From assembly GCA_021735655.1 (NCBI GenBank), contig JAIPGM010000001.1:224001-288000 (forward strand): a stretch of 64,000 nt of DNA. Direction: 5' to 3'. Below, piece by piece: positions 9,060 to 27,194 of the stretch. This DNA comes from Candidatus Omnitrophota bacterium. Lineage in GTDB: Bacteria; Omnitrophota; Gorgyraeia; Duberdicusellales; 4484-171. Below the pieces are notes generated by a model. The model worked only from the letters and a program-made list of their open reading frames with translations, made no database searches and was not told the DNA's origin. The translations under genes and the position numbers were made by a program. Numbering within the stretch: position 1 is the first letter of the stretch; the number at the start of each line of letters is the position of its first letter.

Positions 9060-9911
9060 ATGAGCAAACCTTTATTATCGGTGATTATCCCAGCTTTTAA
9101 CGCCGAAATTTACATTGAAAAATGTTTGCAACCATTGATTAAGAATCTGTCTGATGGTTTAGAAGTAATTGTTGTCGATAATGGGTCAGTTGATAAAACA
9201 GCAGCTATTGTAACTGAGGGATACCCTCAGGTAACTTTGTTGAAAAATCAGGAAAATCTCGGTGCTTGTAGGGCTAGGAATCAAGCTATCGAAGTCTCAT
9301 CTGGAGAATGGGTTTTGACTCTTGATTGTGATGTGGTTTTGGAAGATGACTTTATTTTAAAAGTATCTCAGTTGATAGATGATCTGCCGTCTGATCGTAT
9401 TGGAATAATCCAGCCAAAAATATTGCAAGCTGACAAAAAAACTATTGATTCCTGTGGAATCCATCTTTCCTGGTTGAGGAGATTCTATGATCTTGGGAAG
9501 GGGAAAACTGACTCCGGCCAATTCAATGAATCTATCTATGTTTTCGGCGCCTGCTCAGCCTGCGCTCTTTATCGGCGGACGATGCTTGAGGATTTAAAAG
9601 AAAGTGGAGAATACTTTGATCAAAAGTTCTTTTTTTTAGTGGAAGATGTGGACTTGGCCTGGCGAGCAAATAATAGGCAGTGGCAATCATTCTTTTTTCC
9701 TTTTATTTCTTGTTGTCATATCGGAAAAAGTTCAGGTTTTCCTAAGAAATTCCGGCAGTATCTTTGTTTTCGCAATCGCTACTACACAATAGCTAAAAAC
9801 GAGGGGTTGGGTAGGTATGCCGGAAAAATTTTACCTGTGATTATATATGATTTTCCTAGGTTGGTTTATTTGGCTTTAACTAATAAATATTTCTGGACTA
9901 GAAAATTGTGA
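9060..9911 (+). CDS. Glycosyltransferase family 2
   Basis: 'LSVIIPAFNAE...VIVVDNGSVDKT' is the GT2 nucleotide-sugar-binding signature. A DxD-like 'LDCDVV' and a 'GACSACALYRR' block are present. Confidence 0.8.
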   Translation: MSKPLLSVIIPAFNAEIYIEKCLQPLIKNLSDGLEVIVVDNGSVDKTAAIVTEGYPQVTLLKNQENLGACRARNQAIEVSSGEWVLTLDCDVVLEDDFILKVSQLIDDLPSDRIGIIQPKILQADKKTIDSCGIHLSWLRRFYDLGKGKTDSGQFNESIYVFGACSACALYRRTMLEDLKESGEYFDQKFFFLVEDVDLAWRANNRQWQSFFFPFISCCHIGKSSGFPKKFRQYLCFRNRYYTIAKNEGLGRYAGKILPVIIYDFPRLVYLALTNKYFWTRKL

Positions 9912-11407
9912 AAACCGAAAACGGAATTACAAACCGGCGTGATTTTTGGATAAAGATTTCTCTGTTCTTTTTTGCTCTTTTTCTGCTTAGGGTATATGGT
10001 CTTAGCCGGCATGAGTTTTGGTATGATGAAATATACTCGGTTGATTTTGCCCGTTCTCCCTTGCTCAGTTGGAACGCCCCTCTTTATTGGATTATTATTC
10101 ATTTTTGGTCAAAGTTATTTGGTTTGTCTGAATTCAGCCTGCGTTTTCCTTCTGCTATTTTTAGTCTGGCTACTTGCGTAGGGACCTATGTTTTGGGAAA
10201 GATGATATTTAGCCGGAGGATCGGGCTTTTGTCAGCTTTGATCATTGGCTTGTCACCTTTCCACCTCTGGTATGCTCAGGAAGCCAGGAATTACAGCCTG
10301 GTAACTTTTTTGGGAATATTTTCTTCTTATTTATTTTTTCGGGCTCTTAATGAGAGAAAAACAATATTTTGGGTTTACTTTGTAGTAATTTCTTTGCTTG
10401 GCGTGTACACAAACTACTTTTATTTGTTTTTGTTGTTTTTTCAAGGGGTCTATTTTGTTTGCTTCCGGGGGGTCAGATTCAAGCTTAAAGAAATATGGCC
10501 TTTTTTAATAGTTCTTGCCGGATTTATGTTTTATTTTCCGGGATTTATCAGTAAGTTTGCTTTTGTAAAATTAGGTTTTTGGGTGCCTAAGCCAGAGCTT
10601 GGGGCACTACTTATTAGTTTTGAGAATTTTCTTTTGGGTTATAGCGGAAACAGATTTTTTTATCTAGTGGCTAGTTTAATAACTTTAGTTTGTATTGGTG
10701 CGTTATTATATAAAGTAATAAAGGATAAGGCTATTTGCCAGGGGGTATTTTTTTGTTTTTGTTTATCGTTTGCTCCGATATTATTGATATTTTTGTTTTC
10801 CAGTATTTTTTTCTCAATTTATTTAGATCGGGGCCTGATGTTGTTCAGTCCTTATTTTTATATTCTTCTTTCTTTGGGATTGTTTTATTTGGTTCGACGC
10901 TGGAGAATCATTGTTTTTATTTCTCTTGTTTTTTTACAGATAGTTGCTATTTTCGGATTTTATCAGGATCGGATGTATCCGCCGCTTAAGCATCATATCG
11001 GAACTTATCTTAAAAAACCGGTTAAACCGGCCATAACTTTTCTTGAGGACAATGTCCGAGAGGGTGATATTGTTGCTTATACTAATCCTTCGGCCATACG
11101 TTCTATGGAATATTATAGCCAGCGGAGATTAGCTGATTTTTATATGTTTTTTGATCCGAGCTTGTCGGAATCATCTTGGCAAAGGCCTATCCAGGAAACA
11201 GCCACTATAGTTCCATATAATAAAATAAGAGGCTTACCTGCTGAACGTATTTGGGTTATTTTTAATGATTGGGGTAGAACCGGTGGCTTGGATGAACATT
11301 CAAAAATAGTAAAGGATTGGATGGATGAAAATCTTACCTTGAAAACTTCCCGGGAATTTGATGGCTTGTGGGTATTGGAGTATACAAAGAAAGTCATTAG
11401 CCCATAG
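9908..11407 (+). CDS. GT-C membrane glycosyltransferase (ArnT/PMT, GT39/GT83-like)
   Basis: It has about 10 or more transmembrane segments. 'RHEFWYDEIYSVDFA' is the periplasmic DE-loop motif of the PMT_2 family. The GTG start overlaps the upstream stop. Confidence 0.65.
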   Translation: MKTENGITNRRDFWIKISLFFFALFLLRVYGLSRHEFWYDEIYSVDFARSPLLSWNAPLYWIIIHFWSKLFGLSEFSLRFPSAIFSLATCVGTYVLGKMIFSRRIGLLSALIIGLSPFHLWYAQEARNYSLVTFLGIFSSYLFFRALNERKTIFWVYFVVISLLGVYTNYFYLFLLFFQGVYFVCFRGVRFKLKEIWPFLIVLAGFMFYFPGFISKFAFVKLGFWVPKPELGALLISFENFLLGYSGNRFFYLVASLITLVCIGALLYKVIKDKAICQGVFFCFCLSFAPILLIFLFSSIFFSIYLDRGLMLFSPYFYILLSLGLFYLVRRWRIIVFISLVFLQIVAIFGFYQDRMYPPLKHHIGTYLKKPVKPAITFLEDNVREGDIVAYTNPSAIRSMEYYSQRRLADFYMFFDPSLSESSWQRPIQETATIVPYNKIRGLPAERIWVIFNDWGRTGGLDEHSKIVKDWMDENLTLKTSREFDGLWVLEYTKKVISP

Positions 11408-11518: not shown

Positions 11519-13081
11519 ATGAAAGCCTTATCTAGCAAGAAGCATTTTATAGTAATTTCATTGATAATGATTTTGTCTTTTCATTTTATAAATAACTTTA
11601 TATGGCTGGCAATTGACGATACTCCGGACGGGGTTGACACTGCTTGGCATTTGATAGAGGCCGCAAAATTCCAGATATTGTTTAGGGGGATATCAGAATC
11701 CAAACAATCGTTATTTAGTAAGATAAAACAAATGTTTTATACGTTTAGAGAAGGGAGCGGCCATATAGCTTGGCCGCCACTTATCTATCTTATTTCTTGG
11801 TTATTGGTCCCTTCTCACTTTTCGCTTTTTTCAATCAGGCTGTATGTAGATTTTTTATTTTTTTCCTTGTTGATAATTTCTGTATATTTTTTAGGGAAGA
11901 AGATTTTTAACAAAAAGACTGGTTTGCTGGCTGCTTTTTTGATAAGTTTTTATCCTTCTGTTTATTTTTCTTCTCGGCAATTTGGACTAGACCTACCGTT
12001 GACAACTTTCACGGCTTTGTGTACTTGTTTTATTTTGTATTCTGAGAGTTTTTCCCGGAGAGGCTACTCTTTGTTGTTTGGCTTAAGTCTGGGCCTCGCG
12101 ACTTGGGCTAAGCTGCAGATAGCTTTTTTCCTGCTGGTGCCATTATGCTGGGAAACTTTTAAAATATTTTCTAAAGCTGTGGAAAAAAAATCCAAATCAT
12201 TGTTTAACTTGATTCTTAGCTTGGCGGTAACATTTATTTTATTTTGGGTATATTGGGGTTCTAAGCTTCAATCAGCCTGGGTAAGCTTTTGTGAGTACGC
12301 TACGTTTCTTTATCCTTCTTTTAAGAACAATTTGTTTATTTTAAGCGAACCGGAAATACCGATATTTAGTATAAGTAATATGTTTTTTTACCCGTCTCAG
12401 ATGCTAAACTACACATCTTGGGTTCTTTTTGCCTTATTCGTAATTGCCTTGATATTATCCTGGCGATACAAAATGAAACGAAGAGGCTTCTTCTTAGCAA
12501 GTTTGATTGTGCCTTATCTTATTTATACTTTTATATCTATGAAATGGGCACGTTACACATTGCCGTTTCTTGTATTCATTGCTTTAATTTCTGCTTGGTC
12601 AATTGATAGTCTTAGGCGTAAATACTTAAAGAAATTTATGTTGAGGGGAATAATTATTTATTGCCTAGGAGTTTTTTTCATAATATCTTGGGTAATTCCT
12701 TACAATAAAACACCTTTTTTCTGCGGAGATTTTTTCGGGTATCATCTTCCTTATTTTCGTCCGCCGGCTTTTGATGCTTACGCTGAAACAGTTAGCGAGA
12801 AAGGAATCATTAACGACATTAAGGGTAAAATCAGCGGTAGCGAGGAAGTAACCATAAGCTATAATAATCACGGAGCCCGCACAGTGCTCGTTTTTTACGA
12901 CATTTTTAGTGACTATATTTTGTCTGGTAAAATAAACTTACGAAGGGACGATGAGCTAAGTTTTTCTGATGCCGACTATATAGTTTTAGGAAATCAGGAT
13001 TGGTTTGAAAAAAAAGATATTCTAAAAAAATATAAGGTTTTGTCTAAGTTGAAAGAAGAAACAGTTTTGTTTAAGGAGTAA
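11519..13081 (+). CDS. GT-C-like polytopic membrane glycosyltransferase (ArnT/PMT-like)
   Basis: It is a multi-pass membrane protein. The first loop has an acidic motif (IDDTPDGVDTAWH) and there is a large C-terminal soluble domain. Confidence 0.5.
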   Translation: MKALSSKKHFIVISLIMILSFHFINNFIWLAIDDTPDGVDTAWHLIEAAKFQILFRGISESKQSLFSKIKQMFYTFREGSGHIAWPPLIYLISWLLVPSHFSLFSIRLYVDFLFFSLLIISVYFLGKKIFNKKTGLLAAFLISFYPSVYFSSRQFGLDLPLTTFTALCTCFILYSESFSRRGYSLLFGLSLGLATWAKLQIAFFLLVPLCWETFKIFSKAVEKKSKSLFNLILSLAVTFILFWVYWGSKLQSAWVSFCEYATFLYPSFKNNLFILSEPEIPIFSISNMFFYPSQMLNYTSWVLFALFVIALILSWRYKMKRRGFFLASLIVPYLIYTFISMKWARYTLPFLVFIALISAWSIDSLRRKYLKKFMLRGIIIYCLGVFFIISWVIPYNKTPFFCGDFFGYHLPYFRPPAFDAYAETVSEKGIINDIKGKISGSEEVTISYNNHGARTVLVFYDIFSDYILSGKINLRRDDELSFSDADYIVLGNQDWFEKKDILKKYKVLSKLKEETVLFKE

Positions 13082-13091
13082 GCAGTAGATT

Positions 13092-14288
13092 ATGTTTTTG
13101 TTTCTTTCGTTGTTGCCTTTAATGGTTGTGTTTTATTGGTTCGGCCTGCCCCGAAAGTGGCGAAGCTTATTTTTATTTGCAATGAGCCTTGTGTTTGCCG
13201 CGTCCATTAGCTTAAGGTATACGTTCTATTTTCTTTTCAATATAGTGATAGTTTATGTCGGCGGAGCCTCAATGCGTAAAACCGACAAAAGAAAAAAAAT
13301 TATTCTTAAATTGTTATTAGTTTGGCTGGTTGGTAATATCTGCTTTTTCAAATACATTGGTCTACTAGCTGTTAGCATGTCGAGGATATCTTGGTTTGCA
13401 TCAATGCCAAAAATACCAATGCCGGGGATAGTTTTACCTTTAGGAATTTCTTATATAATATTCAGGCTCATACATTACATTGTTGAGGTTTATAGAAGGA
13501 ATATGCCCGAGAGTTCCTTTAGTGATTTCGGACTATATATTTTATTCTTTCCGACATTTTTAGCTGGTCCGGTTGAAAGATTTCATAATTTTCATTCCCA
13601 AACTAGAGCCCAGAAAAGTATTTCCGCGGGCACCAGCCTTGGCGATATCAATTACGGATTATTTCGCATTATTTGCGGTATGGTTAAGAAATTCATTATC
13701 GGCGATAGTTTAGCAAGATTGATAATGCCGTTGCTTAATTCACCGCAGAATTATTCGCGTTTGCTGGTGTTGGTGTCTATATACGGTTTAGCTGTACGAA
13801 TCTATATGGATTTCTCAGGTTATACTGACATGGCTATTGGAATAGCTAGATTGTTTGGATACCGGATTGTTGAGAATTTTAAAAAGCCCTTTTTTCAAAA
13901 AAATATAGCTTTATTTTGGAGAAATTGGCATATATCAGTGTATACCTGGATAAGAGATTATTTCTTTTTTCCATTTTTCGGCCATCGGGCTTCCAGTGTA
14001 AAAGTTTATGCTGGCGTGTTTTTTTCTATGCTTGTATTTATGTTATGGCACGGAGGAAACTTTAATTTTTTTATTTTAGGAATTTATCATGGCTTGGGTC
14101 TTTTAACCTGGTATGGGTTTCAGGAGATAAAAAGAAAACATCCTGCGATTCGTCGCTTGACCGTCAAGCCTTATCTGGACCCGTTGGCTATTTTTTTTAC
14201 ATTTAGTTTTGTAAGTTTCGGTTTTATTGTTTTCGCTTTGGACATTAATTGTGCAAAGGCTATTTTACAAAGAGTATTTTTTGTTTAG
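13092..14288 (+). CDS. MBOAT-family membrane-bound O-acyltransferase (DltB/AlgI-like)
   Basis: 'FWRNWHISVYTWIRDYFFFP' matches the MBOAT 'WRRWHISLSTWLRDYLY' block, including the catalytic His. Confidence 0.8.
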   Translation: MFLFLSLLPLMVVFYWFGLPRKWRSLFLFAMSLVFAASISLRYTFYFLFNIVIVYVGGASMRKTDKRKKIILKLLLVWLVGNICFFKYIGLLAVSMSRISWFASMPKIPMPGIVLPLGISYIIFRLIHYIVEVYRRNMPESSFSDFGLYILFFPTFLAGPVERFHNFHSQTRAQKSISAGTSLGDINYGLFRIICGMVKKFIIGDSLARLIMPLLNSPQNYSRLLVLVSIYGLAVRIYMDFSGYTDMAIGIARLFGYRIVENFKKPFFQKNIALFWRNWHISVYTWIRDYFFFPFFGHRASSVKVYAGVFFSMLVFMLWHGGNFNFFILGIYHGLGLLTWYGFQEIKRKHPAIRRLTVKPYLDPLAIFFTFSFVSFGFIVFALDINCAKAILQRVFFV

Positions 14289-14307: not shown

Positions 14308-14544
14308 TTGAAGGACAAAATAAGAAACTTTATCATTAGCAATTTTATGTTTGATGAGGGTAGTTTAGGAGATGATGATTTACTATTTGAGACAGGGATC
14401 ATAGATTCTATGGGATTTATCAAACTGCTCGCTTTCATTGATAAGACATTTAATCTATCTATGGATATGAGTGAAATAAGCATCGATAATTTTAATACTT
14501 TAAACAATATTGTTAAGAGCTTAGAGCGTAAGATTAATAGGTAA
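14308..14544 (+). CDS. Acyl/peptidyl carrier protein (DltC-like)
   Basis: 78 aa. 'GIIDSMGFIKLLAFI' is the DSx phosphopantetheine-attachment motif. Confidence 0.7.
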   Translation: MKDKIRNFIISNFMFDEGSLGDDDLLFETGIIDSMGFIKLLAFIDKTFNLSMDMSEISIDNFNTLNNIVKSLERKINR

Positions 14545-14571: not shown

Positions 14572-15717
14572 ATGAATTTTTCCTGGAGTAAAAATCAAGA
14601 AGAACTCAAAAGGGCGGCAACAAAATTTGCGGCGGCCAAACTCAATGATGATATTATTCAAAGGGACAAGAACGGTAAATTTTCCTTAGACGGCTGGAAG
14701 GCCTGCGCTGACTTTGGTCTCCAGGGCATGTTAATGCCCAAAAAGTATGGTGGATTGGGATTTGGGTTACTTGATATAGTAGCTATCTTGGAAGGTATAG
14801 GCTACGGATGTAAAGATAATGGACTTATATTTTCAATCAATGCCCATATTTGGGGGGCAGAGGCGCCGATTTATCATTTTGGTACAGAAACCCAGAAGAA
14901 AAAATTACTTCCCGGTTTTTGTAACGGTAGCTTAATTGGGGCAAATGCAATGACTGAACCCGGTTCAGGTTCGGATGTCTATTCCCTTAGAACTACCGCT
15001 GTTAAAAAGAATAATTATTACACTTTGAACGGAACCAAGATCTTTGTCACCAATGCCCCTTTGGCTGATATATTTATTGTTTACGCTCGTACCGCTAAGT
15101 CTCGAGGATTCTCCGGTTTATCTTGCTTTTTAGTCGAGAAAGGTACCAAGGGATTAGTTATAGGTGAAAATTTCGAAAAAATGGGGCTTAGGACCAGTCC
15201 GATGTCGGAAGTGATTTTTAATAATTGTAAGATACCGAAAAACAATTTAGTCGGTCAAAAAGGTTCAGGAGCCTTGGTTTTTAATGATAGCATGGAATGG
15301 GAAAGGGTTTTTATTTTAGCTAATTGTGTAGGTATTATGGATCGCCAGCTGAAATATTGCATAGAATACGCAAATTCCAGAAAGTTGGATACCAAGCCAA
15401 TCGGTAAATACCAATCCGTAGCCAATAAGATTGTAGATATCCAGTCGAACCTTGAAGTAAGCCGCTTGCTTCTTCATAAGGCCGCTTGGCTTAAGAGCTG
15501 CAAAGAATCGGCATCAATGGCTTCAGCAATGACAAAATTGTATCTTAGCGAAGCTTATATTAAAAGTATTCGCTGTGTCATGGATATCTTTGGTGGATAT
15601 GGATATATGACTGAGTATGAATTGGAGCGCGAATTGAGAGATGCTCTAGCGAGCACTGCCTATTCGGGAACATCGCAGATACAAAAAAATATCATTGCCG
15701 GTCTTAGCGGATTATAA
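14572..15717 (+). CDS. Acyl-CoA dehydrogenase family flavoenzyme
   Basis: 'GANAMTEPGSGSDV' is the ACAD signature. The C-terminal helical domain ends '...YSGTSQIQKNIIAG'. Confidence 0.8.
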   Translation: MNFSWSKNQEELKRAATKFAAAKLNDDIIQRDKNGKFSLDGWKACADFGLQGMLMPKKYGGLGFGLLDIVAILEGIGYGCKDNGLIFSINAHIWGAEAPIYHFGTETQKKKLLPGFCNGSLIGANAMTEPGSGSDVYSLRTTAVKKNNYYTLNGTKIFVTNAPLADIFIVYARTAKSRGFSGLSCFLVEKGTKGLVIGENFEKMGLRTSPMSEVIFNNCKIPKNNLVGQKGSGALVFNDSMEWERVFILANCVGIMDRQLKYCIEYANSRKLDTKPIGKYQSVANKIVDIQSNLEVSRLLLHKAAWLKSCKESASMASAMTKLYLSEAYIKSIRCVMDIFGGYGYMTEYELERELRDALASTAYSGTSQIQKNIIAGLSGL

Positions 15718-15718
15718 T

Positions 15719-17302
15719 ATGGAATACCGATTACCGACATTATTGCGGCAAAGCGCAAAGAGTCAACCTTTTAAAGTTGCCATTAGACAGGGCGAAGAAG
15801 AACTTTCATATGAAGATTTGAATTTGTTGAGTGATAAGTTGGCCTCTTGCTTAGTCGATAAAGGCCTAAAGGTTGGCGACAGAGTAGGAATATATATAGA
15901 TAAATCGATTGATGCTGTTATTGCTATATTTGGTATTTTAAAATCGGGCGGTTGTTATGTTTCTTTGGATCCTTTGGATAATTCCCGGAGGCAGACCTTA
16001 ATTGTTAAGGATTGTTCATTGAAATATTTGATTTCTTCTTCAAAAAAGTTACCATCTCTGGTTAAAATAATACGCGGTATAGATAGTCTAGAGTATATAT
16101 TTGTAGTTGACGCCAACAAAAAAGAAAGTAGCAGGGATTGGTGCGACATTAAGATGGTTTTTAAAAAGGAGATATTTAATTCAGATGTTAGCATTTCCCC
16201 AAGGTCGAGAAGATTAAAAGACAACAACTCGGCATATATACTTTATACTTCTGGTTCAACCGGAAAACCCAGAGGAGTAGAGATTAGTCATCGGGCTTCA
16301 CTTGCTTTCATAAATTGGGCCAATAAGTATTTTAATATTACTAAAGCCGACATTGTGGCGGCTCAGTCTCCGTTTCATTTCGACCTTTCCATTTTTGATA
16401 TTTTCGTCAGCATAAAGGCCGGCGCGACCATTTGTATTGTTCCTCAGTCTTTATCAATTTTTCCTAAATCTTTGGCAGATTTTATCGAGAGCCAGAAAAT
16501 TAGCACTTGGTATTCTACACCTTCGGTTTTAATCAAGCTTCTTTACTACGGTAATCTTCAGAAAAGGAATTTATCAGCCCTAAAAAGAATTATTTTCGCC
16601 GGTGAGGTATTTCCCCCAAAGCATCTGCATAAGCTAATGAAGATATTGCCGGGAGCTAAATACTATAATTTATACGGACCTACCGAAACGAATGTCTGTA
16701 CTTGTTATTTTTTAAAGCGTATTCCTAAGGTAGATAAACCGATCCCGATAGGGTGTCCTTGTCGCGGCCAATATATTTTCATAGTTGATAAGGCTGGCAA
16801 TCTTGTTAAAAACGGTCAATCGGGCGAATTATGTGTTAGCGGACCCACACTTATGCAGGGATACTGGAATAATTCTCAGGCAACCGAGAAAGCTATGATT
16901 AAGCTCAATTTTTTAAATAAAGCCAGTAAGGTATATAGAACTGGTGATTTGGCCAAAATTAGAAAAAACGGAGATATTCTTTATTGTGGCCGTAATGATG
17001 AAATGTTAAAGGTAAGGGGATATCGGGTTGAGCCGGCTGAAATTGAAGCAGTTTTGCATTCATGTCCGGGAATAAAAGAAGCAGCTGTGGTAGGAGTCTC
17101 AGCTGATGCAGCTGGGGACAGAATCAAAGCCGTGATTAGCCTAAAAACTAACTATTCTGTTTCTGAGAGTAAGGTAAAGCTTTTTTGTTCCAGGCAGTTG
17201 CCTTCCTATATGGTTCCTGCGGAAATATTTTTTAAAAAGTCGTTACCTCGGCTTTCTACCGGAAAAATTGATAGGAAGAAATTGAAAACAATTCGAAGAT
17301 GA
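15719..17302 (+). CDS. Adenylate-forming enzyme (AMP-dependent ligase, DltA/NRPS A-domain-like)
   Basis: Core adenylation motifs are present: 'YILYTSGSTGKPRGVEISH', 'YGPTE', 'YRTGDL' and 'GRNDEMLKVRGYRVEPAEIE'. ATG 15719 is preferred. The ORF track starts at 15695. Confidence 0.85.
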   Translation: MEYRLPTLLRQSAKSQPFKVAIRQGEEELSYEDLNLLSDKLASCLVDKGLKVGDRVGIYIDKSIDAVIAIFGILKSGGCYVSLDPLDNSRRQTLIVKDCSLKYLISSSKKLPSLVKIIRGIDSLEYIFVVDANKKESSRDWCDIKMVFKKEIFNSDVSISPRSRRLKDNNSAYILYTSGSTGKPRGVEISHRASLAFINWANKYFNITKADIVAAQSPFHFDLSIFDIFVSIKAGATICIVPQSLSIFPKSLADFIESQKISTWYSTPSVLIKLLYYGNLQKRNLSALKRIIFAGEVFPPKHLHKLMKILPGAKYYNLYGPTETNVCTCYFLKRIPKVDKPIPIGCPCRGQYIFIVDKAGNLVKNGQSGELCVSGPTLMQGYWNNSQATEKAMIKLNFLNKASKVYRTGDLAKIRKNGDILYCGRNDEMLKVRGYRVEPAEIEAVLHSCPGIKEAAVVGVSADAAGDRIKAVISLKTNYSVSESKVKLFCSRQLPSYMVPAEIFFKKSLPRLSTGKIDRKKLKTIRR

Positions 17303-17421
17303 AAAAAAACCATAAAACACTCATGGTAACAATTGTTCTCTGTGGTATTATATTTATAATCAGCTATATTTTATATTTTTTTATAAAGCCTCCGCTTGAA
17401 TTTATATATCAACAATTCTAG
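17299..17421 (+). CDS. DltX-like 40-aa membrane micropeptide
   Basis: Not in the ORF track. Its ATG overlaps the stop of the adenylation gene as ATGA. The translation is MKKNHKTLMVTIVLCGIIFIISYILYFFIKPPLEFIYQQF*. It has one transmembrane segment, and its C-terminal FIYxxF motif resembles my recollection of the DltX C-terminus (FIYNEF-like), which needs checking against a DltX model. Confidence 0.45.
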   Translation: MKKNHKTLMVTIVLCGIIFIISYILYFFIKPPLEFIYQQF

Positions 17422-17452: not shown

Positions 17453-18748
17453 ATGAAGGATTACAATAAGGAGTCTCTTTTTACTGCAGCTGGAAAGTTT
17501 ATTTTTGGCACAGGTATCATCTTTTTACTGCTTTTTTTATTTTATCAGAAGTCATTAATTCTGTCTTTAGATCCTAATCCAAATTTGTCTGAAATTACAG
17601 TTGAGAAAATAAAACTTACCAGGCTTTATTTATTATCGATATCTTTGGTGTTGATTTTCATATCAGGGGCAGCAAAGATGTTGCCGGTTTTTAACCGTTA
17701 TATAAATCGAATAATGGCAATTAAACCAGTGCGGTATTTTTTGTTGATAATGCTGCCGATAGTTATTTTCGAACTATACTTTCAACCTTTAGCTTTGCAA
17801 AAACCGACAATTTTAATGCGGGATGATGATTTAATCTGGAAATTACGGCCAAATAGCGAATCTATATGGGCTGAAGCGATAGTAAAGATAAATTCCAAAG
17901 GCTTAAGGGGTCCCGAGTTAGATTACGCTAAACCGGCTGATACAAAAAGAATCCTTTATTTGGGCGATTCTATAACTTTTGGTTTTAGCTTGAAAAGCTA
18001 CGATCAAACATTTCCCTGTCAGGTTGAGGAAATTTTAGAGGAAGATAATAATAGAAAAGTTGAAACAATAAATGCCGGTGTGGGCGGTTATTCTCCCTGG
18101 CAGGAATATATCTATTTATCAAAAGAAGGTATTAACTATGATCCGGATTTAGTTGTAGTCGCTTTTACCTTAACCGATGTTAGTGAGAAGCTTGGCTTGA
18201 GACGATTCGGCGGCGACAGCGAAGGGGCTCAGCTGGCAGCTTCGGCTATTACGATATTTGATTGGTTAAGTAACAAAAGCCGCATTTTATATTTCATAAA
18301 GGAGGCGGTTACTAACCTAAGATTCAACGGCGATATTGAAAAAATGGTACCGGTTGAAGAAGGGCTTAAAATTACCCAGCTAATAGATGAAGCAAACGAT
18401 CCGGACATTAAAAATGCATGGGAGATTACCTTAAATAATCTTGGTAAAATATTCGATTTTTGTAAAAGTGGAAATGTCCCGGTAATATTAGTTATTTTTC
18501 CGGTAGCGTCTCAATTTGATGATGTTGAGAACATGTCAGGGCCACAACTTTTTGTGAGCAGGTTTGCTAGTAAAAAAAATGTTCTGTCATTGGACTTGCT
18601 GCCTTTGTTATCTCAGAGAGTCAAAAATAAAAAAGTAGACCTAGAAGATTATTTTTTGGGTCCACTTCACTTATCAGCTGAGGGAAATAAGGTAGTTGCT
18701 GAATTAATAGCTGACTTTATTAAGGAAAGTAATATTTTATATTTTTGA
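17453..18748 (+). CDS. Membrane-anchored SGNH/GDSL hydrolase-fold protein (DltD/AlgX-like)
   Basis: An N-terminal transmembrane helix is present. The GDS block is 'ILYLGDSITFGF', the Gly block is 'NAGVGGYS', and the C-terminal region has a DxxH-like motif. Confidence 0.6.
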   Translation: MKDYNKESLFTAAGKFIFGTGIIFLLLFLFYQKSLILSLDPNPNLSEITVEKIKLTRLYLLSISLVLIFISGAAKMLPVFNRYINRIMAIKPVRYFLLIMLPIVIFELYFQPLALQKPTILMRDDDLIWKLRPNSESIWAEAIVKINSKGLRGPELDYAKPADTKRILYLGDSITFGFSLKSYDQTFPCQVEEILEEDNNRKVETINAGVGGYSPWQEYIYLSKEGINYDPDLVVVAFTLTDVSEKLGLRRFGGDSEGAQLAASAITIFDWLSNKSRILYFIKEAVTNLRFNGDIEKMVPVEEGLKITQLIDEANDPDIKNAWEITLNNLGKIFDFCKSGNVPVILVIFPVASQFDDVENMSGPQLFVSRFASKKNVLSLDLLPLLSQRVKNKKVDLEDYFLGPLHLSAEGNKVVAELIADFIKESNILYF

Positions 18749-19620
18749 CTTTTATCAAAATGAGTAAAACCTTAAATATTGAAGATTTGGATAGGGCTGT
18801 ACTTAGGAAATTGGAAACTCTGCAGAGTATTTTTTCTGATATGGGAAGTGCTTTAATAGCCTATTCCGGAGGTGTAGATAGCACGCTTTTAACCAAGGTG
18901 GCCAAGGATGTTCTAAAAAGTAAGGCGGTTGCTGTGACTTCAGAGTCAGAAACTTATCCTTTACGGGAATCAAGGCAGGCTAAGGAATTGGCAAGGCAGC
19001 TGGGAATAAGGCATATTATTATTAATACCCGTGAACTAGATAATGAAGAGTTTTCTAAAAATTCACCTCAAAGATGTTATTTTTGCAAAAAAGAATTGTT
19101 TTCCAGACTTTTGGATTTAGCAAAACAGCATAGTTTAGATTATGTTGTTGAGGGCTCAAATCACGACGATCGGTCTGATTATCGGCCGGGCCTAAAGGCA
19201 ATAGAGGAACTAGGCATAAGAAGTCCTTTAAAAGAAGCCGAGCTAACCAAGAAAGAAATCAGAATACTTTCGAAGATGTTCGGTTTAAGCTCTTGGAATA
19301 AACCGTCTTTTGCCTGCCTATCTTCAAGATTCCCTTACGGAACTAAAATAACCAAAGATGGATTAATAAAGGTTGATCGGGCTGAGGGGGTGTTGCTTAA
19401 ATTTGGCTTTAGCCAGTTAAGAGTAAGAATACATGGGCCAATAGCAAGGATAGAGGTTCCCAAGGAAGATATTTCTTTATTTTTTAAGGCTGGTTTGTCA
19501 GACAGAGTTGTTGAAGAATTTAAAAAAATCGGTTTTTTCTATGTAACTTTAGATTTGGCAGGTTATGAAACTGGCAGTATGAATAAGCTGCTTAAGAGCG
19601 AGGATAAATTTGGATACTAA
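18745..19620 (+). CDS. larE: LarE-family ATP-dependent sulfur transferase (PP-loop)
   Basis: 'ALIAYSGGVDSTLL' is the PP-loop motif. Conserved Cys are present (CYFCKKELF, CLSSRFPYG). It sits directly upstream of larB and larC homologs. Confidence 0.75.
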   Translation: MTFIKMSKTLNIEDLDRAVLRKLETLQSIFSDMGSALIAYSGGVDSTLLTKVAKDVLKSKAVAVTSESETYPLRESRQAKELARQLGIRHIIINTRELDNEEFSKNSPQRCYFCKKELFSRLLDLAKQHSLDYVVEGSNHDDRSDYRPGLKAIEELGIRSPLKEAELTKKEIRILSKMFGLSSWNKPSFACLSSRFPYGTKITKDGLIKVDRAEGVLLKFGFSQLRVRIHGPIARIEVPKEDISLFFKAGLSDRVVEEFKKIGFFYVTLDLAGYETGSMNKLLKSEDKFGY

Positions 19621-20356
19621 AAGACTAAAAAAATTACTTCAGGATATAAAATCGGGCAAAAAAAATGTAGCCTCAGCTATGCGGGCATTAAAGTCTCTAC
19701 CTTTTGAGGATTTAGGTTTTGCTAAGGTGGATACTCATAGAGATTTACGTTGTGGATTCTCAGAAGTCGTATTCTGTCAGGGGAAAACTTTAAACCAAGT
19801 AACAACTATCGTTAAAAAACTTTCCTTGGTTAACTCTTGTGTTTTGGCAACTAAAGCCGATAAAAAGGTTTATAGGGCTATAAAACGAATCAGAAAGAAT
19901 GCTGTTTATTATGAACAGGCAAAAATAGTAGTTATTGGAAAAAATAAAAAGTTAAAGTCAGAAAAAACTATTTTGGTTGTCAGTGCCGGTACTTCGGATA
20001 TTCCAGTAGCCGAAGAAGCCGCGGTTACAGCCATGGTTTTAGGCAATAAAGTTCAAAAGGTATATGATGTGGGGGTCGCCGGTGTACACCGGTTGCTTAA
20101 ACATAAACAAAAACTGTTTAAAGCCAGTGTGATTATAGTTGTTGCCGGAATGGAGGGGGCCTTGGCAAGTATAGTCGGAGGGTTGGTGGATAAGCCGGTT
20201 ATAGCTGTTCCTACCAGTGTGGGTTATGGAGCAAGCTTTAAGGGACTTTCGGCATTACTTACTATGCTTAATTGCTGTGCTCCGGGAATTACAGTGGTAA
20301 ATATAGATAATGGATTTGGGGCAGGGTACGCTGCTAGTATAATAAATCGACAATGA
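19610..20356 (+). CDS. larB: LarB-like NaAD carboxylase/hydrolase (PurE-fold)
   Basis: An N-terminal LarB-specific region (LKKLLQDIKSG...) precedes the PurE-like 'ILVVSAGTSDIPVAEEAA' domain. Confidence 0.7.
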   Translation: MDTKRLKKLLQDIKSGKKNVASAMRALKSLPFEDLGFAKVDTHRDLRCGFSEVVFCQGKTLNQVTTIVKKLSLVNSCVLATKADKKVYRAIKRIRKNAVYYEQAKIVVIGKNKKLKSEKTILVVSAGTSDIPVAEEAAVTAMVLGNKVQKVYDVGVAGVHRLLKHKQKLFKASVIIVVAGMEGALASIVGGLVDKPVIAVPTSVGYGASFKGLSALLTMLNCCAPGITVVNIDNGFGAGYAASIINRQ

Positions 20357-21534
20357 AGATAGCTTATTTTGATTGTTTTTGTGGGATAAGTGGGGATATG
20401 ATTTTGGGGGCATTTTTGGACTGTGGGTTAGATATTGAAGATTTGCGAAAAGAATTGAATAAGTTAAAGTTATCCGATTATCAAATAAAAATTGAGAAAG
20501 TAAAAAAAGGTGTTATCTCAGGTACTAAATTCAGCGTTGACATAAAAAAACAAAAAATCGAGCGTAGCTTAAAAGATATCCTTAAGATTATAGGAGAAAG
20601 TAATTTGGATGCTGATATAAAAAAATCATCCAGAGAGACATTTGAGTTGTTAGCAAAGGTAGAAGCCGAAATACATAATCAAGATATAGAAAAAATACAT
20701 TTTCATGAAGTAGGGGCAGTTGATTCTATAGTAGATATAGTGGGAGCTTTTATAGGAATAAAACTTTTAGGTATTGAATGTATTTATTCGTCAAAGATTC
20801 ATGTCGGGGATGGCTTTGTTAGGTGTCAGCATGGTACTTTGCCTGTTCCTTCGCCGGCCACGATAGCTTTGCTAAAAGGCATTCCGATTTATTCAAAAGG
20901 GATAGACTCTGAATTGGTTACGCCTACTGGAGCTTGCATTATAAGGAAAGTTTCTAAAGGGTTCGGTCTCTTACCAGACATGGAGATAAAAAAAATAGGC
21001 TATGGCGGAGGAAGAAAAGATTTGTCAATTCCTAATCTTTTAAGAATTTTTATAGGGGAAACCGAGGAGGATAATATATACGATAATGATGAAGTAATAC
21101 TTATTGAGACAAACATAGATGATATGAGCCCCGAGGCAGTAGGCTATATTTCAGAAAGATTGCTTAGCCGAGATGCTTTGGATGTTTTCACTACTCCAAT
21201 TTTTATGAAAAAAAACCGGCCGGCAGTAACTTTAAGTATTTTGACCGAACCTAGCAAGCTCGACGACATGCTTTCTTGTTTATTCTCGGAAACAACTACC
21301 TTTGGTATAAGGATGCGTGGTTTTAAGCGGAGAAAACTTTTACGCAAGATTGCTATGATTGATACAAAGTTTGGTCCGATTGCGGTTAAAGTTGGCCGGA
21401 CTAGTGAAGGGATAAAGACTATCGCTCCTGAATATGAATCTTGTAAACAAGTTGCTCAAAAGGAAAATATTCCTTTTAAAAATATATACAGCGAAGTAAA
21501 GAAAATAGCTGATCAAGTTTTAAAAGAAACCTAA
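20353..21534 (+). CDS. larC: LarC-like nickel insertase (DUF111)
   Basis: 'MKIAYFDCFCGISGDMILGAFLDCGL' is the typical DUF111/LarC N-terminus. The length, about 390 aa, is appropriate. Confidence 0.8.
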   Translation: MKIAYFDCFCGISGDMILGAFLDCGLDIEDLRKELNKLKLSDYQIKIEKVKKGVISGTKFSVDIKKQKIERSLKDILKIIGESNLDADIKKSSRETFELLAKVEAEIHNQDIEKIHFHEVGAVDSIVDIVGAFIGIKLLGIECIYSSKIHVGDGFVRCQHGTLPVPSPATIALLKGIPIYSKGIDSELVTPTGACIIRKVSKGFGLLPDMEIKKIGYGGGRKDLSIPNLLRIFIGETEEDNIYDNDEVILIETNIDDMSPEAVGYISERLLSRDALDVFTTPIFMKKNRPAVTLSILTEPSKLDDMLSCLFSETTTFGIRMRGFKRRKLLRKIAMIDTKFGPIAVKVGRTSEGIKTIAPEYESCKQVAQKENIPFKNIYSEVKKIADQVLKET

Positions 21535-21545
21535 AGGCTTAGCTG

Positions 21546-22760
21546 ATGTCGGTGAAACTTAAGCGTCTATTTGGATCATTTGTGAGATTGTGTTCATTTA
21601 TTGTGCTTATCTTTAGGCCTTACGCCGATAACGAGATTCAGGCATCTAGTGAGCCTTTGCCCGGTGAGCATAAAAATATACCGGCACCTTTCTATCCGCC
21701 GAAAAATTCCAAAATTATATCTTTACCACAACAGAAACAAGTGGTTACGACTGAAGTTTCGATAATAAAAGGTTATAATTTATATTCTATTACCAGAGAA
21801 GCTATCGATGCAATCGGTGGTATGAAAAGTATAGTAAAAAAGGGTAATAAAGTATTTATAAAGCCTAACTATGTAAGTGGCGGCCTTAATGGGCATGATC
21901 CAGTTACAACCGGAGAAATTGCTCATCCGGAAGTAGTTGCTTCGGTAGCGGAAGAATGCTTGAAGGCCGGAGCTAAAGAAGTAATAATTGGTGAGTGGGT
22001 CGAGCGTCCTTATAAAATAAACTTTGGTGGCGAGGAAGGAAAAGATGGTGCTCAAGTTAAGCATTTAATCGATTTATTAAATAAAAAATATGGACATAAG
22101 ATTTATTTGATAAATTTAATGGACCATACTACTAATTTTAAATACTTTCCTTCAAGGACTAAATTAGGCTTTTTGGCAATTCCTGACATAGTAGCTGAAG
22201 CAGATGTAATTATCTCGATCCCTTCTCTGAAAACTCATCATAAACCATGCCCGGTAAGTTTAGGTATGAAGAATTTTATGGGTATTATGCCTTCTATTTT
22301 TTATGGCGAGCCGCGGTATAAATTGCATGAAGCTGGAGTTCATCAGGTAATAGTGGACATTAACCAAGCTTTAAAGCCATCTTTAGTTGTTATCGATGGA
22401 AGCTTTGGGATGGAAAAGGGTGGTGCCTCAGTGTTTTTAGGAGGCAAACCAGTAGATGTTAGCAAGCGTATAGGAGGGTTTTTGGTGATTGCCGGGAGAG
22501 ATCCGGTGGCGACAGACGCAACTGCTACTCGGTTGATTACTAAAGATTGGGGGCCGAGACCTGAAGATTCCAATTTGGGTACTCCTTGGTATGTACATCA
22601 TCTTCGGATGGCTAGCGAACAAGGATTGGGGGTTTTGGATGCTTCGCGAATAATTATTAAGGGTGAGAGCTTAAAAAGCGTTGAAATGAATTGGCAGGCT
22701 TCGGATGATGGAGTATATCCTGAAATTAAGAAAGATGAAAATCCTAAAGACAACAATTAA
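21546..22760 (+). CDS. DUF362-like domain protein with an N-terminal hydrophobic segment
   Basis: 'KGNKVFIKPNYVSG' and 'SIPSLKTHHKPCPVSLGMKNFMG' match my recollection of DUF362 blocks. It sits immediately downstream of larBCE. Confidence 0.45.
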   Translation: MSVKLKRLFGSFVRLCSFIVLIFRPYADNEIQASSEPLPGEHKNIPAPFYPPKNSKIISLPQQKQVVTTEVSIIKGYNLYSITREAIDAIGGMKSIVKKGNKVFIKPNYVSGGLNGHDPVTTGEIAHPEVVASVAEECLKAGAKEVIIGEWVERPYKINFGGEEGKDGAQVKHLIDLLNKKYGHKIYLINLMDHTTNFKYFPSRTKLGFLAIPDIVAEADVIISIPSLKTHHKPCPVSLGMKNFMGIMPSIFYGEPRYKLHEAGVHQVIVDINQALKPSLVVIDGSFGMEKGGASVFLGGKPVDVSKRIGGFLVIAGRDPVATDATATRLITKDWGPRPEDSNLGTPWYVHHLRMASEQGLGVLDASRIIIKGESLKSVEMNWQASDDGVYPEIKKDENPKDNN

Positions 22761-25259: not shown

Positions 25260-27194
25260 ATGATTAAGTTTTTATATCAGGAAATGTACCAGCGCAGAAA
25301 TATTATCGCAATTTTAGTCATTATGCTTATTGTCGGAATGTTCTATTTTCCGACGATAAAGGATATCGATTCTACAATTATAAGCGAGGATGACTGGTTT
25401 GGTTTTTATTACTATGCGGGCATATCAAGATTAACAGCCTTGAAATATCATCAGTTGCCGTTGCGTACTCCTTATCTAGGCGGAGGGTACCCTTCGATTG
25501 CTCACCCTTTCGATTATACCCTAAGCCCTTTTTTCTTTTTTATTTTATTGTTTGGGGAAGTAGCAGGATTAAGGTTGATGGTGTACTTTATTTTTATGTT
25601 TGGTTCTTTGGGGATGTTTTACTTTACTAGATATGTTTTGAAATACAATCTCATGGGAGCTATTTTCTCTTGCTTGACTTTTTCTCTCTGCAGTTGGGGG
25701 GCTTTTGAGGTAGTTGACGGAAATATCCCTAAGATATTTTGTTATCTTTTGCCTTGGCTATTTGCTTTTTTGCTGCAATCTAAAAAAGATAAGCGATTCT
25801 TAATCCTTGCTTGTTTAGTTTTGAGTCCGATTCTGACCCTATCTGGTTTATCTTTTATCCCGGTAGTGCTGGCTTTGTTTTTATTAGCCTGCTTTTATGC
25901 CGTCAGTATAAATAAGGGGTTTAAGTTTAAAATCAGAGGATCGTATATAGCTTTTTTTCTGGCCATAATAATCGGAACCTGTCTTTTATTTGCTATTAAA
26001 GTCATTCCGATGTTTGAACTTTATAAAATGCGCACAGAGTATATTCATTTGCCATACGAGAATTCTTATTCTGCGATTTCCCGAGCCACTAAGGCCTTTG
26101 GCGCTTGTTTGGATATGGAATTACTTAAAAAGTCCTTGTTGGATAAGAGCTTTCGTGGATATTCAACAATGTATTTAGGGTATCTTCCACTCGTTTTTAT
26201 GTTTTTATCGATTTTAATCTATGCAAAAAAAAATATGCGCTACATATTGCTTCTGATCGTATTTGCCCTCATTCAGTTTGGATCGAGAAGTCCCCTGGAT
26301 TTATTTAAGATATTTTGGCAGATTCATCCGTCAGTTCATGGGATATGGAGGCTTAATAAATATTTTGGTTTTTTTATTCCCTTTTTTATTTCTATAATTG
26401 CCGGGAGGTTTTTCTTAATTTTTAGACATAAAAAGATAATTAAACCGCTGGTATTTATAATCATCGGGATTAGTGCATATCATATGTATTCGAATAATAG
26501 ATTGATTTTTAGTCCTATGGTTTACGAAAGAAAGCCGTCTTTGGAGGTGTATGATTCGTTTTTTCCGGTTGAGATAGAAAACACTACCATAGAAAGAGCT
26601 TGGCCGGGATTTCATGAGGTTAAAGACATACGGTCCTATCAGCCTTTTTGGTTGCTGTTACGTCAAAATATAGGAGTGGTGAATTTTAATTGGTCGGGGA
26701 ATTTAAACCTTTCTCAATACGCTCAGCCTAAATATATACTTCCTACTGGTAAACAGGTAGGAGAAATTGTCTATGTCCGTGGTTACGAACAGTTATCCCA
26801 AGATATAAATGTACCAATTGATTTAATGACTGTAGCAAGGGACAACCCTCATTATCAAGGAGAAGTATTTTTTTTGAAAAAAAACAACAAGGTGGACTCG
26901 ACATATCTTAGTCCTAATATAGTAAAAGCTGATGTTAGTCTTAGAAGTCCTGATCGGCTTATTATAAATCAGAATTACCACAAGAGTTGGACAGTGGACA
27001 AGGGCAAGCTGATAAATCACAAAGGCTTGCTGGCAGTTGAGCTTGTAGATCAAGGTGTTCATCAGGTGACATTTAGATATGTTCCTCTAGATTTTTATTT
27101 AGGCGCGATTGTAAGTTTTTTTACACTTATAGGTATGTTGGCTTACTTTTGGTTCGTGCCTGGGAAAAAAATTAGTTTCAATAAAGCTAAATAA
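25260..27194 (+). CDS. Large polytopic membrane protein, YfhO-like (tandem paralog 1)
   Basis: 644 aa with many transmembrane helices. The C-terminus is '…FRYVPLDFYLGAIVSFFTLIG…'. Confidence 0.45.
   Translation: MIKFLYQEMYQRRNIIAILVIMLIVGMFYFPTIKDIDSTIISEDDWFGFYYYAGISRLTALKYHQLPLRTPYLGGGYPSIAHPFDYTLSPFFFFILLFGEVAGLRLMVYFIFMFGSLGMFYFTRYVLKYNLMGAIFSCLTFSLCSWGAFEVVDGNIPKIFCYLLPWLFAFLLQSKKDKRFLILACLVLSPILTLSGLSFIPVVLALFLLACFYAVSINKGFKFKIRGSYIAFFLAIIIGTCLLFAIKVIPMFELYKMRTEYIHLPYENSYSAISRATKAFGACLDMELLKKSLLDKSFRGYSTMYLGYLPLVFMFLSILIYAKKNMRYILLLIVFALIQFGSRSPLDLFKIFWQIHPSVHGIWRLNKYFGFFIPFFISIIAGRFFLIFRHKKIIKPLVFIIIGISAYHMYSNNRLIFSPMVYERKPSLEVYDSFFPVEIENTTIERAWPGFHEVKDIRSYQPFWLLLRQNIGVVNFNWSGNLNLSQYAQPKYILPTGKQVGEIVYVRGYEQLSQDINVPIDLMTVARDNPHYQGEVFFLKKNNKVDSTYLSPNIVKADVSLRSPDRLIINQNYHKSWTVDKGKLINHKGLLAVELVDQGVHQVTFRYVPLDFYLGAIVSFFTLIGMLAYFWFVPGKKISFNKAK

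Follow-up and report, generated by a model that had tools for sequence, protein, structure and literature searches.

A candidate DltX-like shuttle microprotein in a carrier-dependent MBOAT/SGNH locus of Candidatus Omnitrophota

What is the role of the 40-codon open reading frame (ORF) that lies between an adenylation gene and an SGNH-protein gene in a Dlt-like locus of a Candidatus Omnitrophota bacterium? The ORF, called X here, is found in a 64,000 nucleotide (nt) stretch of the forward strand (GenBank assembly GCA_021735655.1, contig JAIPGM010000001.1, positions 224,001 to 288,000), which is referred to below as the window and is numbered from its first nucleotide. Conservation in related loci makes it almost certain, so far as sequence can tell, that X is a real and functional microprotein, and analogy with DltX makes it quite probable that it is the acyl-tyrosine shuttle, a split-off subunit, of a carrier-dependent MBOAT/SGNH acylation machine.

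A conserved micro-ORF

X occupies 17299..17421 on the + strand, exactly where the initial annotation had placed a 40 amino acid (aa) ORF, and runs from an ATG at 17299 through 40 codons to a TAG at 17419–17421; its predicted product is MKKNHKTLMVTIVLCGIIFIISYILYFFIKPPLEFIYQQF. Residues 1–8 have a net charge of +3 and a single hydrophobic segment spans approximately residues 7–29 (Kyte-Doolittle 19-mer maximum 2.64), in keeping with the basic N-terminus and lone transmembrane (TM) helix described there, and the 11-residue tail ends with FIYQQF directly before the stop codon. This C-terminal hexapeptide, F35-I-Y37-Q-Q-F40 (FXYXXF), is encoded at 17401..17418 (+), with the Tyr37 codon at 17407–17409. 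By the positive-inside rule we infer that X is a single-pass membrane microprotein of the DltX type whose N-terminus is cytoplasmic and whose tail is extracytoplasmic. The gene is joined to the preceding adenylation gene by an ATGA overlap, in which the X ATG (17299–17301) and the adenylation-gene TGA (17300–17302) have the T and G at 17300–17301 in common; the A, which had been taken to be the shared base, lies outside the TGA, in the third position of the adenylation gene's last Arg codon. The coupling as such stands, and the same ATGA junction recurs in three related loci (L102, L105 and L112). Between X and the downstream SGNH gene there are 31 nt. No Rfam family and no terminator-like site was found in or beside X, nor any terminator-like site between X and the SGNH gene, which rules out an RNA element or a terminator as the explanation of this region. 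The DNA is AT-rich and 16 kb of it contains 92 ORFs of at least 30 aa, so a 40-codon ORF is in itself unremarkable; in all six frames of the 64 kb, X is the sole small ORF that ends in [F/V]xYxxF.

The comparative set was assembled through the MBOAT of this locus and comprises 80 metagenomic loci, so that its taxonomic breadth rests on metagenome contigs. A co-directional micro-ORF is present in 12 loci where a short MBOAT stands next to a carrier protein and at least 3.2 kb of sequence follows, L084 being the only such locus that lacks the full ORF. It was also found on five shorter contigs, giving 17 MBOAT-found loci in total. A filter-free phmmer search with X alone against 1.84 billion representatives returned a single match, P0241, which is also 40 aa long and is 55% identical (E = 2e-4); its locus has the order MBOAT, radical-SAM, acyl carrier protein (ACP), acyl-CoA dehydrogenase (ACAD), radical-SAM, AMP-binding, X, GDSL, and brings the homologous loci with X to 18. 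Each relative is 37–42 aa long, starts with ATG on the operon strand, is basic at its N-terminus, contains one TM helix and terminates exactly with [F/V]xYxxF. All 18 share the Tyr and the last Phe, and at the first motif position 17 have F and one has V; the TM helix varies freely. These features are kept whether the preceding gene is the adenylation gene, a radical-SAM/adenylation fusion, a carrier-protein gene or an SGNH gene, and whether an SGNH, a DltD-like or a TPR gene comes next. In L084 a 19-aa ORF, METRMDLGYKPLKFIYREF (1732–1797), immediately follows the carrier-protein gene and has the motif without a TM helix; decay of a microprotein gene, or mis-assembly, probably accounts for it.

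Small ORFs that end in the motif make up 16 of the 876 on the operon strand of the short-MBOAT loci, and none was found among the control small ORFs, together about 10,750 (0/1257 on the opposite strand of these loci, 0/3332 in long-MBOAT loci and 0/6170 in loci that have only the SGNH gene). Conservation and synonymous-site constraint in homologous loci, which the initial annotation had proposed as the check on X, are both strongly evident: beside the 18 loci, five distinct and sufficiently diverged sequences of one subgroup have pairwise ratios of nonsynonymous to synonymous change (dN/dS) of 0.03–0.13, at proportions of synonymous difference (pS) of 0.27–0.62, and are thus under purifying selection.

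X had been reported as missing from the ORF track, and public databases have the same gap. The exact peptide is absent among approximately 15 billion predicted proteins, in which its neighbours from the same metagenome-assembled genome (MAG) are present as MCF7907334.1 (the ACAD-fold protein) and MCF7907336.1 (the SGNH protein); these accessions leave one number for the adenylation gene between them, indicating that X was skipped by the public annotation. A word-indexed homology search with X gave no match, as expected for an uncalled 40-mer. DltX is likewise commonly missed by annotation (PMC5541007).

Likeness to DltX and a probable split shuttle

In MBOAT/SGNH pathways the MBOAT loads an acyl group onto the invariant Tyr of an extracytoplasmic FXYXXF, the "acyl shuttle" hexapeptide described for DltX, and the shuttle then passes it to the catalytic Ser of an SGNH protein (PMC12148441). 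The Dlt pathway carries the motif on the microprotein DltX and draws on a carrier protein as donor, whereas PatA-type systems have it fused to the MBOAT, on two additional helices, and take the acyl group from acyl-CoA; non-Dlt pathways are said to have neither a carrier protein nor a DltX-like microprotein (PMC12148441). The DltX of Bacillus thuringiensis ends in TFIYNEF (PMC5541007), and the match between the C-terminus of X and that of DltX, which the initial annotation proposed, is correct. Like DltX, X has fewer than 50 aa, is basic at the N-terminus, has a single TM helix and closes with a short tail ending in F-I-Y-x-x-F, and its operon also encodes a motif-free short MBOAT, an SGNH-fold protein, an adenylating enzyme and a small carrier protein. 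With the motif at its extreme C-terminus, this layout and these co-encoded partners, X has the features by which a shuttle microprotein is recognized, and it is on their account that we call it DltX-like. The differences are that X has 40 aa rather than 48 and a tail of 11 residues rather than 15, that its gene sits between the adenylation and SGNH genes and not, as dltX does, at the head of the operon, and that, relative to Firmicute DltX, its host belongs to the Omnitrophota, its cargo enzymes suggest proline or pyrrole and not D-alanine, and its SGNH partner is not DltD.

Membership in the DltX family by sequence is a separate matter. X has no match to Pfam DltX (PF12459, a profile built from Firmicute DltX with a gathering score of 25 bits) even at E <= 10. 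PF12459 is the top Pfam family for six relatives of X, which align to its last model position with sub-cutoff scores of 15.3–21.5 bits, the lowest being that of P0241, the nearest relative; the positive control, B. thuringiensis DltX (sequence taken from PMC5541007), scores 75.7 bits. When the X family was compared with this DltX by hhalign the LY...FIYxxF residues fell in register at a probability of 28%, and the hidden Markov model (HMM) of the X family scores the same protein at 14.3 bits, a value reached by one of 5000 full (composition-preserving) shuffles and one of 5000 segment-preserving shuffles. With the X-family profile, the PDB yielded no DltX chain and only TM-helix noise. Three dlt-operon candidates that came out of a plasmid search were rejected: a PatA-like MBOAT with a fused motif in a chromosome-sized Bacillus record, an unrelated Sinorhizobium asnB-ACP-ligase cluster, and a B. 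thuringiensis plasmid MBOAT with a fused motif. The initial description of X as DltX-like thus stands for motif, layout and context but does not extend to sequence membership, since the alignment to PF12459, by which it proposed to judge the matter, is formally negative for X and sub-threshold for its relatives. X is, on present sequence comparison, DltX-like in its predicted function and its architecture, and its membership in the DltX family by sequence is not established.

The MBOAT of the window (13092..14288, +; 398 aa; Pfam MBOAT 74 bits) is of the DltB, or short, type: it has the core and the catalytic His (His320), it lacks the two extra helices, and it ends in LQRVFFV without a C-terminal extension and without an FXYXXF of its own. 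Its best NCBIfam match is dltB (176 bits, cutoff 375), and its only PDB relatives are the DltB entries 6BUG and 8JEM, residues 115–385 being aligned to residues 122–407 of the 425 of 6BUG with the WHG histidine in place. Of 26 loci in which the MBOAT shares at least 48% identity with that of the window and is followed by 150 bp or more of sequence, 24 have an MBOAT-ACP pair. In every one of the 17 MBOAT-found loci with X the MBOAT is about 395–400 aa long, has no motif and is accompanied by a carrier protein, whereas 37 of 43 distant MBOATs (30–37% identical) are 70–140 aa longer, end in a sequence resembling FIYFQF and have no micro-ORF. The separate peptide therefore goes with short MBOATs and the fused motif with long ones, which is the co-variation with the MBOAT gene that had been suggested as a check, and this pattern reproduces the published dichotomy in which the motif is on DltX in Dlt systems and on the MBOAT elsewhere. 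The tie of X to cassettes with a short MBOAT and a carrier is exclusive; this tie is established here, along with the ORF, its conservation under purifying selection, its motif and the families of its neighbours. We note that L151 (1677–1835) and L156 (119–265) have a micro-ORF of 48–52 aa upstream of a short MBOAT, ending in W-[I/V]-Y-Q-G-F, which indicates that the first motif position can be Trp and that the gene can sit upstream, like dltX; the MBOATs of these two loci form a third class, 34–37% identical, with no ACP detected.

MBOATs of the PatA, AlgI and WssH type share with the window the same hexapeptide, placed where a final TM helix ends on the extracytoplasmic side, and presumably the Tyr-ester chemistry and the hand-off to an SGNH partner as well (PMC12148441). 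They differ in that their donor is acyl-CoA, with neither carrier nor microprotein (PMC12148441), while the window has a separate shuttle gene and, as predicted, a carrier-thioester donor. By this analogy Tyr37 of X would be the site of an acyl-Tyr ester intermediate. The best surviving alternative is that X is a real conserved microprotein that only scaffolds or stabilizes the MBOAT or an MBOAT-SGNH complex and forms no covalent acyl-Tyr; conservation and context do show function and not chemistry, and DltX itself also binds DltB and DltD in a heterotrimeric complex (PMC12148441). It is nevertheless unlikely, because the invariant residues are the Tyr and terminal Phe of the catalytic hexapeptide while the TM helix varies, the same hexapeptide is fused to MBOATs that have no separate peptide, and the Tyr is a proven acyl acceptor in both DltX and PatA (PMC12148441).

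Predicted cargo enzymes and a possible SGNH partner

Three genes between the MBOAT gene and X would supply the acyl group. The first (14308..14544, +) encodes a stand-alone, DltC-like carrier protein of 78 aa with Ser34 in a GIIDSMG phosphopantetheine site (PP-binding 27 bits; best NCBIfam match DltC, 44 bits, cutoff 68). The second (14572..15717, +) encodes an ACAD-fold flavin dehydrogenase that is closest to the prolyl-S-carrier-protein dehydrogenases: its NCBIfam matches, both sub-cutoff, are PigA (418 bits, cutoff 500) and RedW (355 bits, cutoff 650), and its top PDB entries are the prolyl-ACP dehydrogenase 4IRN (395 bits), 6CXT, and the L-prolyl-peptidyl carrier protein (PCP) dehydrogenase 5ZW0/6AF6, generic ACADs scoring at most 253 bits. 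The third (15695/15719..17302, +) encodes a stand-alone adenylation enzyme of the non-ribosomal peptide synthetase type (TIGR01733, 360 bits, above cutoff). The mechanical start of this last ORF, a TTG at 15695, gives a 23-nt overlap with the dehydrogenase gene, and the ATG at 15719, 2 nt past the dehydrogenase stop, is the more likely start. The best single-domain PDB match of the adenylation domain is the L-proline-PCP ligase PltF (6O6E, 290 bits, against 220 for DltA), and over the pocket segment alone, in an ungapped alignment, the score is 124 bits for PltF and 70 for the next non-proline enzyme. The ten-residue specificity code, its positions read from conserved motifs, is DLFYIALVCK in the window, DLFYLALVCK in L163 and DLFYIAFVCK in L102 and L103, compared with DLLYLALVC in PltF; the window differs from PltF by two conservative changes. 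The adenylation domain is thus predicted to be specific for L-proline, and its neighbour may oxidize prolyl-S-ACP to the dehydroprolyl or pyrrolyl-2-carboxyl thioester. A proline-derived cargo, the likeliest being prolyl oxidized to one of these two forms, is fairly likely on these sequence grounds.

Stand-alone proline-type adenylation domain, carrier and ACAD-fold dehydrogenase are also the components of the PltF-PltL-PltE, PigI-PigG-PigA, RedM-RedO-RedW and AnaC-AnaD-AnaB sets. Those type II prolyl/pyrrole cassettes feed cytoplasmic natural-product assembly lines, whereas that of the window stands between an MBOAT and a shuttle/SGNH pair and is embedded in a glycosyltransferase-rich envelope locus. 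Pyrrolyl-2-carboxyl esters on a sugar hydroxyl occur in the aminocoumarins clorobiocin and coumermycin. Other cassettes with X have different cargo enzymes (L083 9432–11876, L101 9451–11883, L098 8349–9971, L088 5018–5719, and L163 1168–2634 and 4125–5789), among them radical-SAM/AMP-binding fusions some 810 aa long, B12-binding radical-SAM enzymes and SAM methyltransferases. Such variety points to acyl groups other than proline derivatives and suggests a conserved transfer core with exchangeable cargo modules.

The presence of a DltB-type MBOAT, a DltC-like carrier, an adenylating enzyme and an SGNH protein bears out the initial view of the locus as Dlt-like, and it could be argued that X is an ordinary DltX orthologue in a locus that D-alanylates a teichoic-acid-like polymer in the canonical way: the components are the same, DltA, DltB and DltC models are among the NCBIfam matches, and the only PDB relatives of the MBOAT are DltB. 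This is very improbable. All of the Dlt models are far below cutoff (DltA 305–310 bits against 476–560, in addition to the dltB and DltC values above), X has no PF12459 match and the SGNH protein no match to the DltD domain (PF04914), the adenylation pocket is nearest to PltF (124 bits against 70 for DltA) with a code that is kept in L102, L103 and L163, a homologue of prolyl-carrier-protein dehydrogenases is inserted in the operon, and the host is an Omnitrophota MAG. The locus is therefore probably Dlt-like but not a D-alanylation locus, as judged from these comparisons. Least probable of all, and scarcely tenable, is that X arose by chance, was left behind when a long MBOAT split, or is a regulatory upstream ORF that controls expression of the SGNH gene through the act of translation and not through its product. 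Small ORFs do abound in such AT-rich DNA, X overlaps one gene and closely precedes the next, and decay does occur (the remnant in L084). Yet amino-acid conservation, with the low dN/dS given above, extends to its length, start, charge pattern, TM helix and motif, these features persist beside varied upstream and downstream genes, and none of the control ORFs is comparable.

The gene after X (17453..18748, +) encodes an SGNH/GDSL protein (Lipase_GDSL_2, 39.9 bits) that is 431 aa long, is membrane-anchored, with three hydrophobic segments in its N-terminal part, and has a GDS Ser173 and a His406 that are invariant in its family. In the 13 related loci with a complete gene downstream of X, that gene encodes an SGNH protein in six, a DltD-like protein in five, a TPR protein in one and an unclassified protein in one; the SGNH proteins are TM-anchored and the DltD-like ones touch Pfam DltD, and the recurrence of such a gene after X supports the MBOAT-shuttle-SGNH logic. 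From its position and by analogy the SGNH protein of the window may be the counterpart of DltD, taking the acyl group onto Ser173 and then transferring it to the acceptor.

Put together, the shuttle reading of X gives the following scheme, in which acyl-Tyr chemistry, topology, SGNH role, exact cargo and acceptor are all suggested by analogy with DltX and PatA. The adenylation enzyme would load L-proline on the 78-aa carrier protein, and the flavin dehydrogenase would turn the prolyl thioester into a dehydroprolyl or pyrrolyl-2-carboxyl thioester. The DltB-type MBOAT would then carry this group across the membrane to Tyr37, within the FIYQQF of X, whose acyl-Tyr tail would hand it to Ser173 of the SGNH protein, and the latter would esterify an extracytoplasmic glycan, probably one made by the neighbouring GT2 and GT-C enzymes (see below).

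Several points weigh against this scheme. Translation of X and the acyl-Tyr intermediate are both predictions, drawn wholly from sequence and analogy; the dN/dS values come from relatives, none of which is near enough to the window locus to give it a measurement of its own. The NCBIfam DltX models give no reportable match to X, and the likeness between X and DltX spans about 25 residues and is dominated by the hexapeptide, so that in sequence terms common descent and convergence are inseparable. The genes stand in the order B, C, dehydrogenase, A, X, D and not in that of dltXABCD. The weakest link is the role of the SGNH protein as the acceptor-side transferase: it has no sequence similarity to DltD, either by Pfam or by direct comparison, and its residue 241 is Thr, against the block III Asn of 29 of 30 relatives, and its residue 403 Gly, against the DxxH Asp of 26 of 30, substitutions which may mark a transferase-type or a weakened active site. 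Its nearest relatives (L001–L081, 37–48% identity, in many phyla) usually have no MBOAT nearby.

These relatives are usually in glycan loci that contain GT-C/PMT_2, epimerase or HAD genes. An SGNH-anchored comparison of 491 homologues and 79 genome loci found no MBOAT, ACP or motif-ending ORF nearby, and two of the homologue contexts that were inspected are plain glycan loci. The SGNH family was rejected as a marker of the cassette, its homologues lying mostly away from any MBOAT; so was the Gly at the DxxH position as a mark of MBOAT-linked SGNH proteins, since it is also present in P0001 and P0002 and the former has no MBOAT nearby. It would seem that the cassette has recruited this family, which is not dedicated to it.

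The wider locus and the meaning of the cassette

Directly upstream of the MBOAT gene and on the same strand are genes for a GT2 glycosyltransferase (9060–9911, +) and two GT-C/PMT_2 membrane glycosyltransferases (9908–11407 and 11519–13081, both +), all assigned by Pfam, and these enzymes may build the acceptor glycan. Following the SGNH gene, with overlapping stop and start codons, are genes for LarE-like (PP-loop), LarB-like (AIRC) and LarC-like (Ni_insertion, 478 bits) proteins and then a DUF362 gene (18745–22760, +); domain scans of the window proteins around this segment showed no LarA domain. Nickel-pincer cofactor biosynthesis appears to be co-transcribed with the acylation cassette. 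Further on, two adjacent genes (25260–27194 and 27194–29128, +) encode paralogous polytopic membrane proteins of 644 aa, the first without a Pfam match, among several PMT_2 GT-C genes, and the wider region looks like a large envelope-glycan locus.

The system departs from canonical Dlt in sequence, gene position, host phylum, SGNH partner and predicted cargo. The use of an adenylation domain and carrier to decorate the envelope outside the Firmicutes is a logic that it has in common with AlmEFG and with the Gram-negative dlt/dra operons. AlmEFG, which modifies Vibrio cholerae lipid A with glycine, works without a shuttle microprotein, and its AlmG does not belong to the MBOATs; Gram-negative dlt operons still transfer D-alanine. 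To our knowledge a pyrrolyl-2-carboxyl, dehydroprolyl or prolyl ester of a glycan is unreported for any cell envelope. Full-text literature searches found no description of split-shuttle cassettes outside Dlt, an earlier mention being possible; Gram-negative dlt operons are mentioned in PMC5541007. We propose, tentatively, that the window holds one case of a widespread and undescribed class of cassettes in uncultured bacteria, with a conserved core (short MBOAT, ACP, DltX-type shuttle microprotein, and SGNH or DltD-like transferase) and swapped cargo enzymes, which here would place a proline-derived ester on an envelope glycan. The class would extend through the Omnitrophota and, on MBOAT homology alone, to the Nitrospirota and Syntrophaceae.

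The mechanism of the acyl-Tyr shuttle has been understood for only a short time, and the window locus and its 18 relatives suggest that the split shuttle/carrier design occurs well outside the Firmicutes with quite different cargo chemistry, so that the Dlt pathway may be one specialized member of a broader modular family of systems for decorating envelope polymers. A subunit that would be mechanistically essential is systematically overlooked by annotation, and finding such systems needs a motif-aware small-ORF step (35–50 aa, one TM helix, C-terminal [FVW]xYxxF). If the proline/pyrrole cargo is correct, the locus would specify a cell-surface modification of a new kind, in a phylum on which hardly any experimental biology exists.

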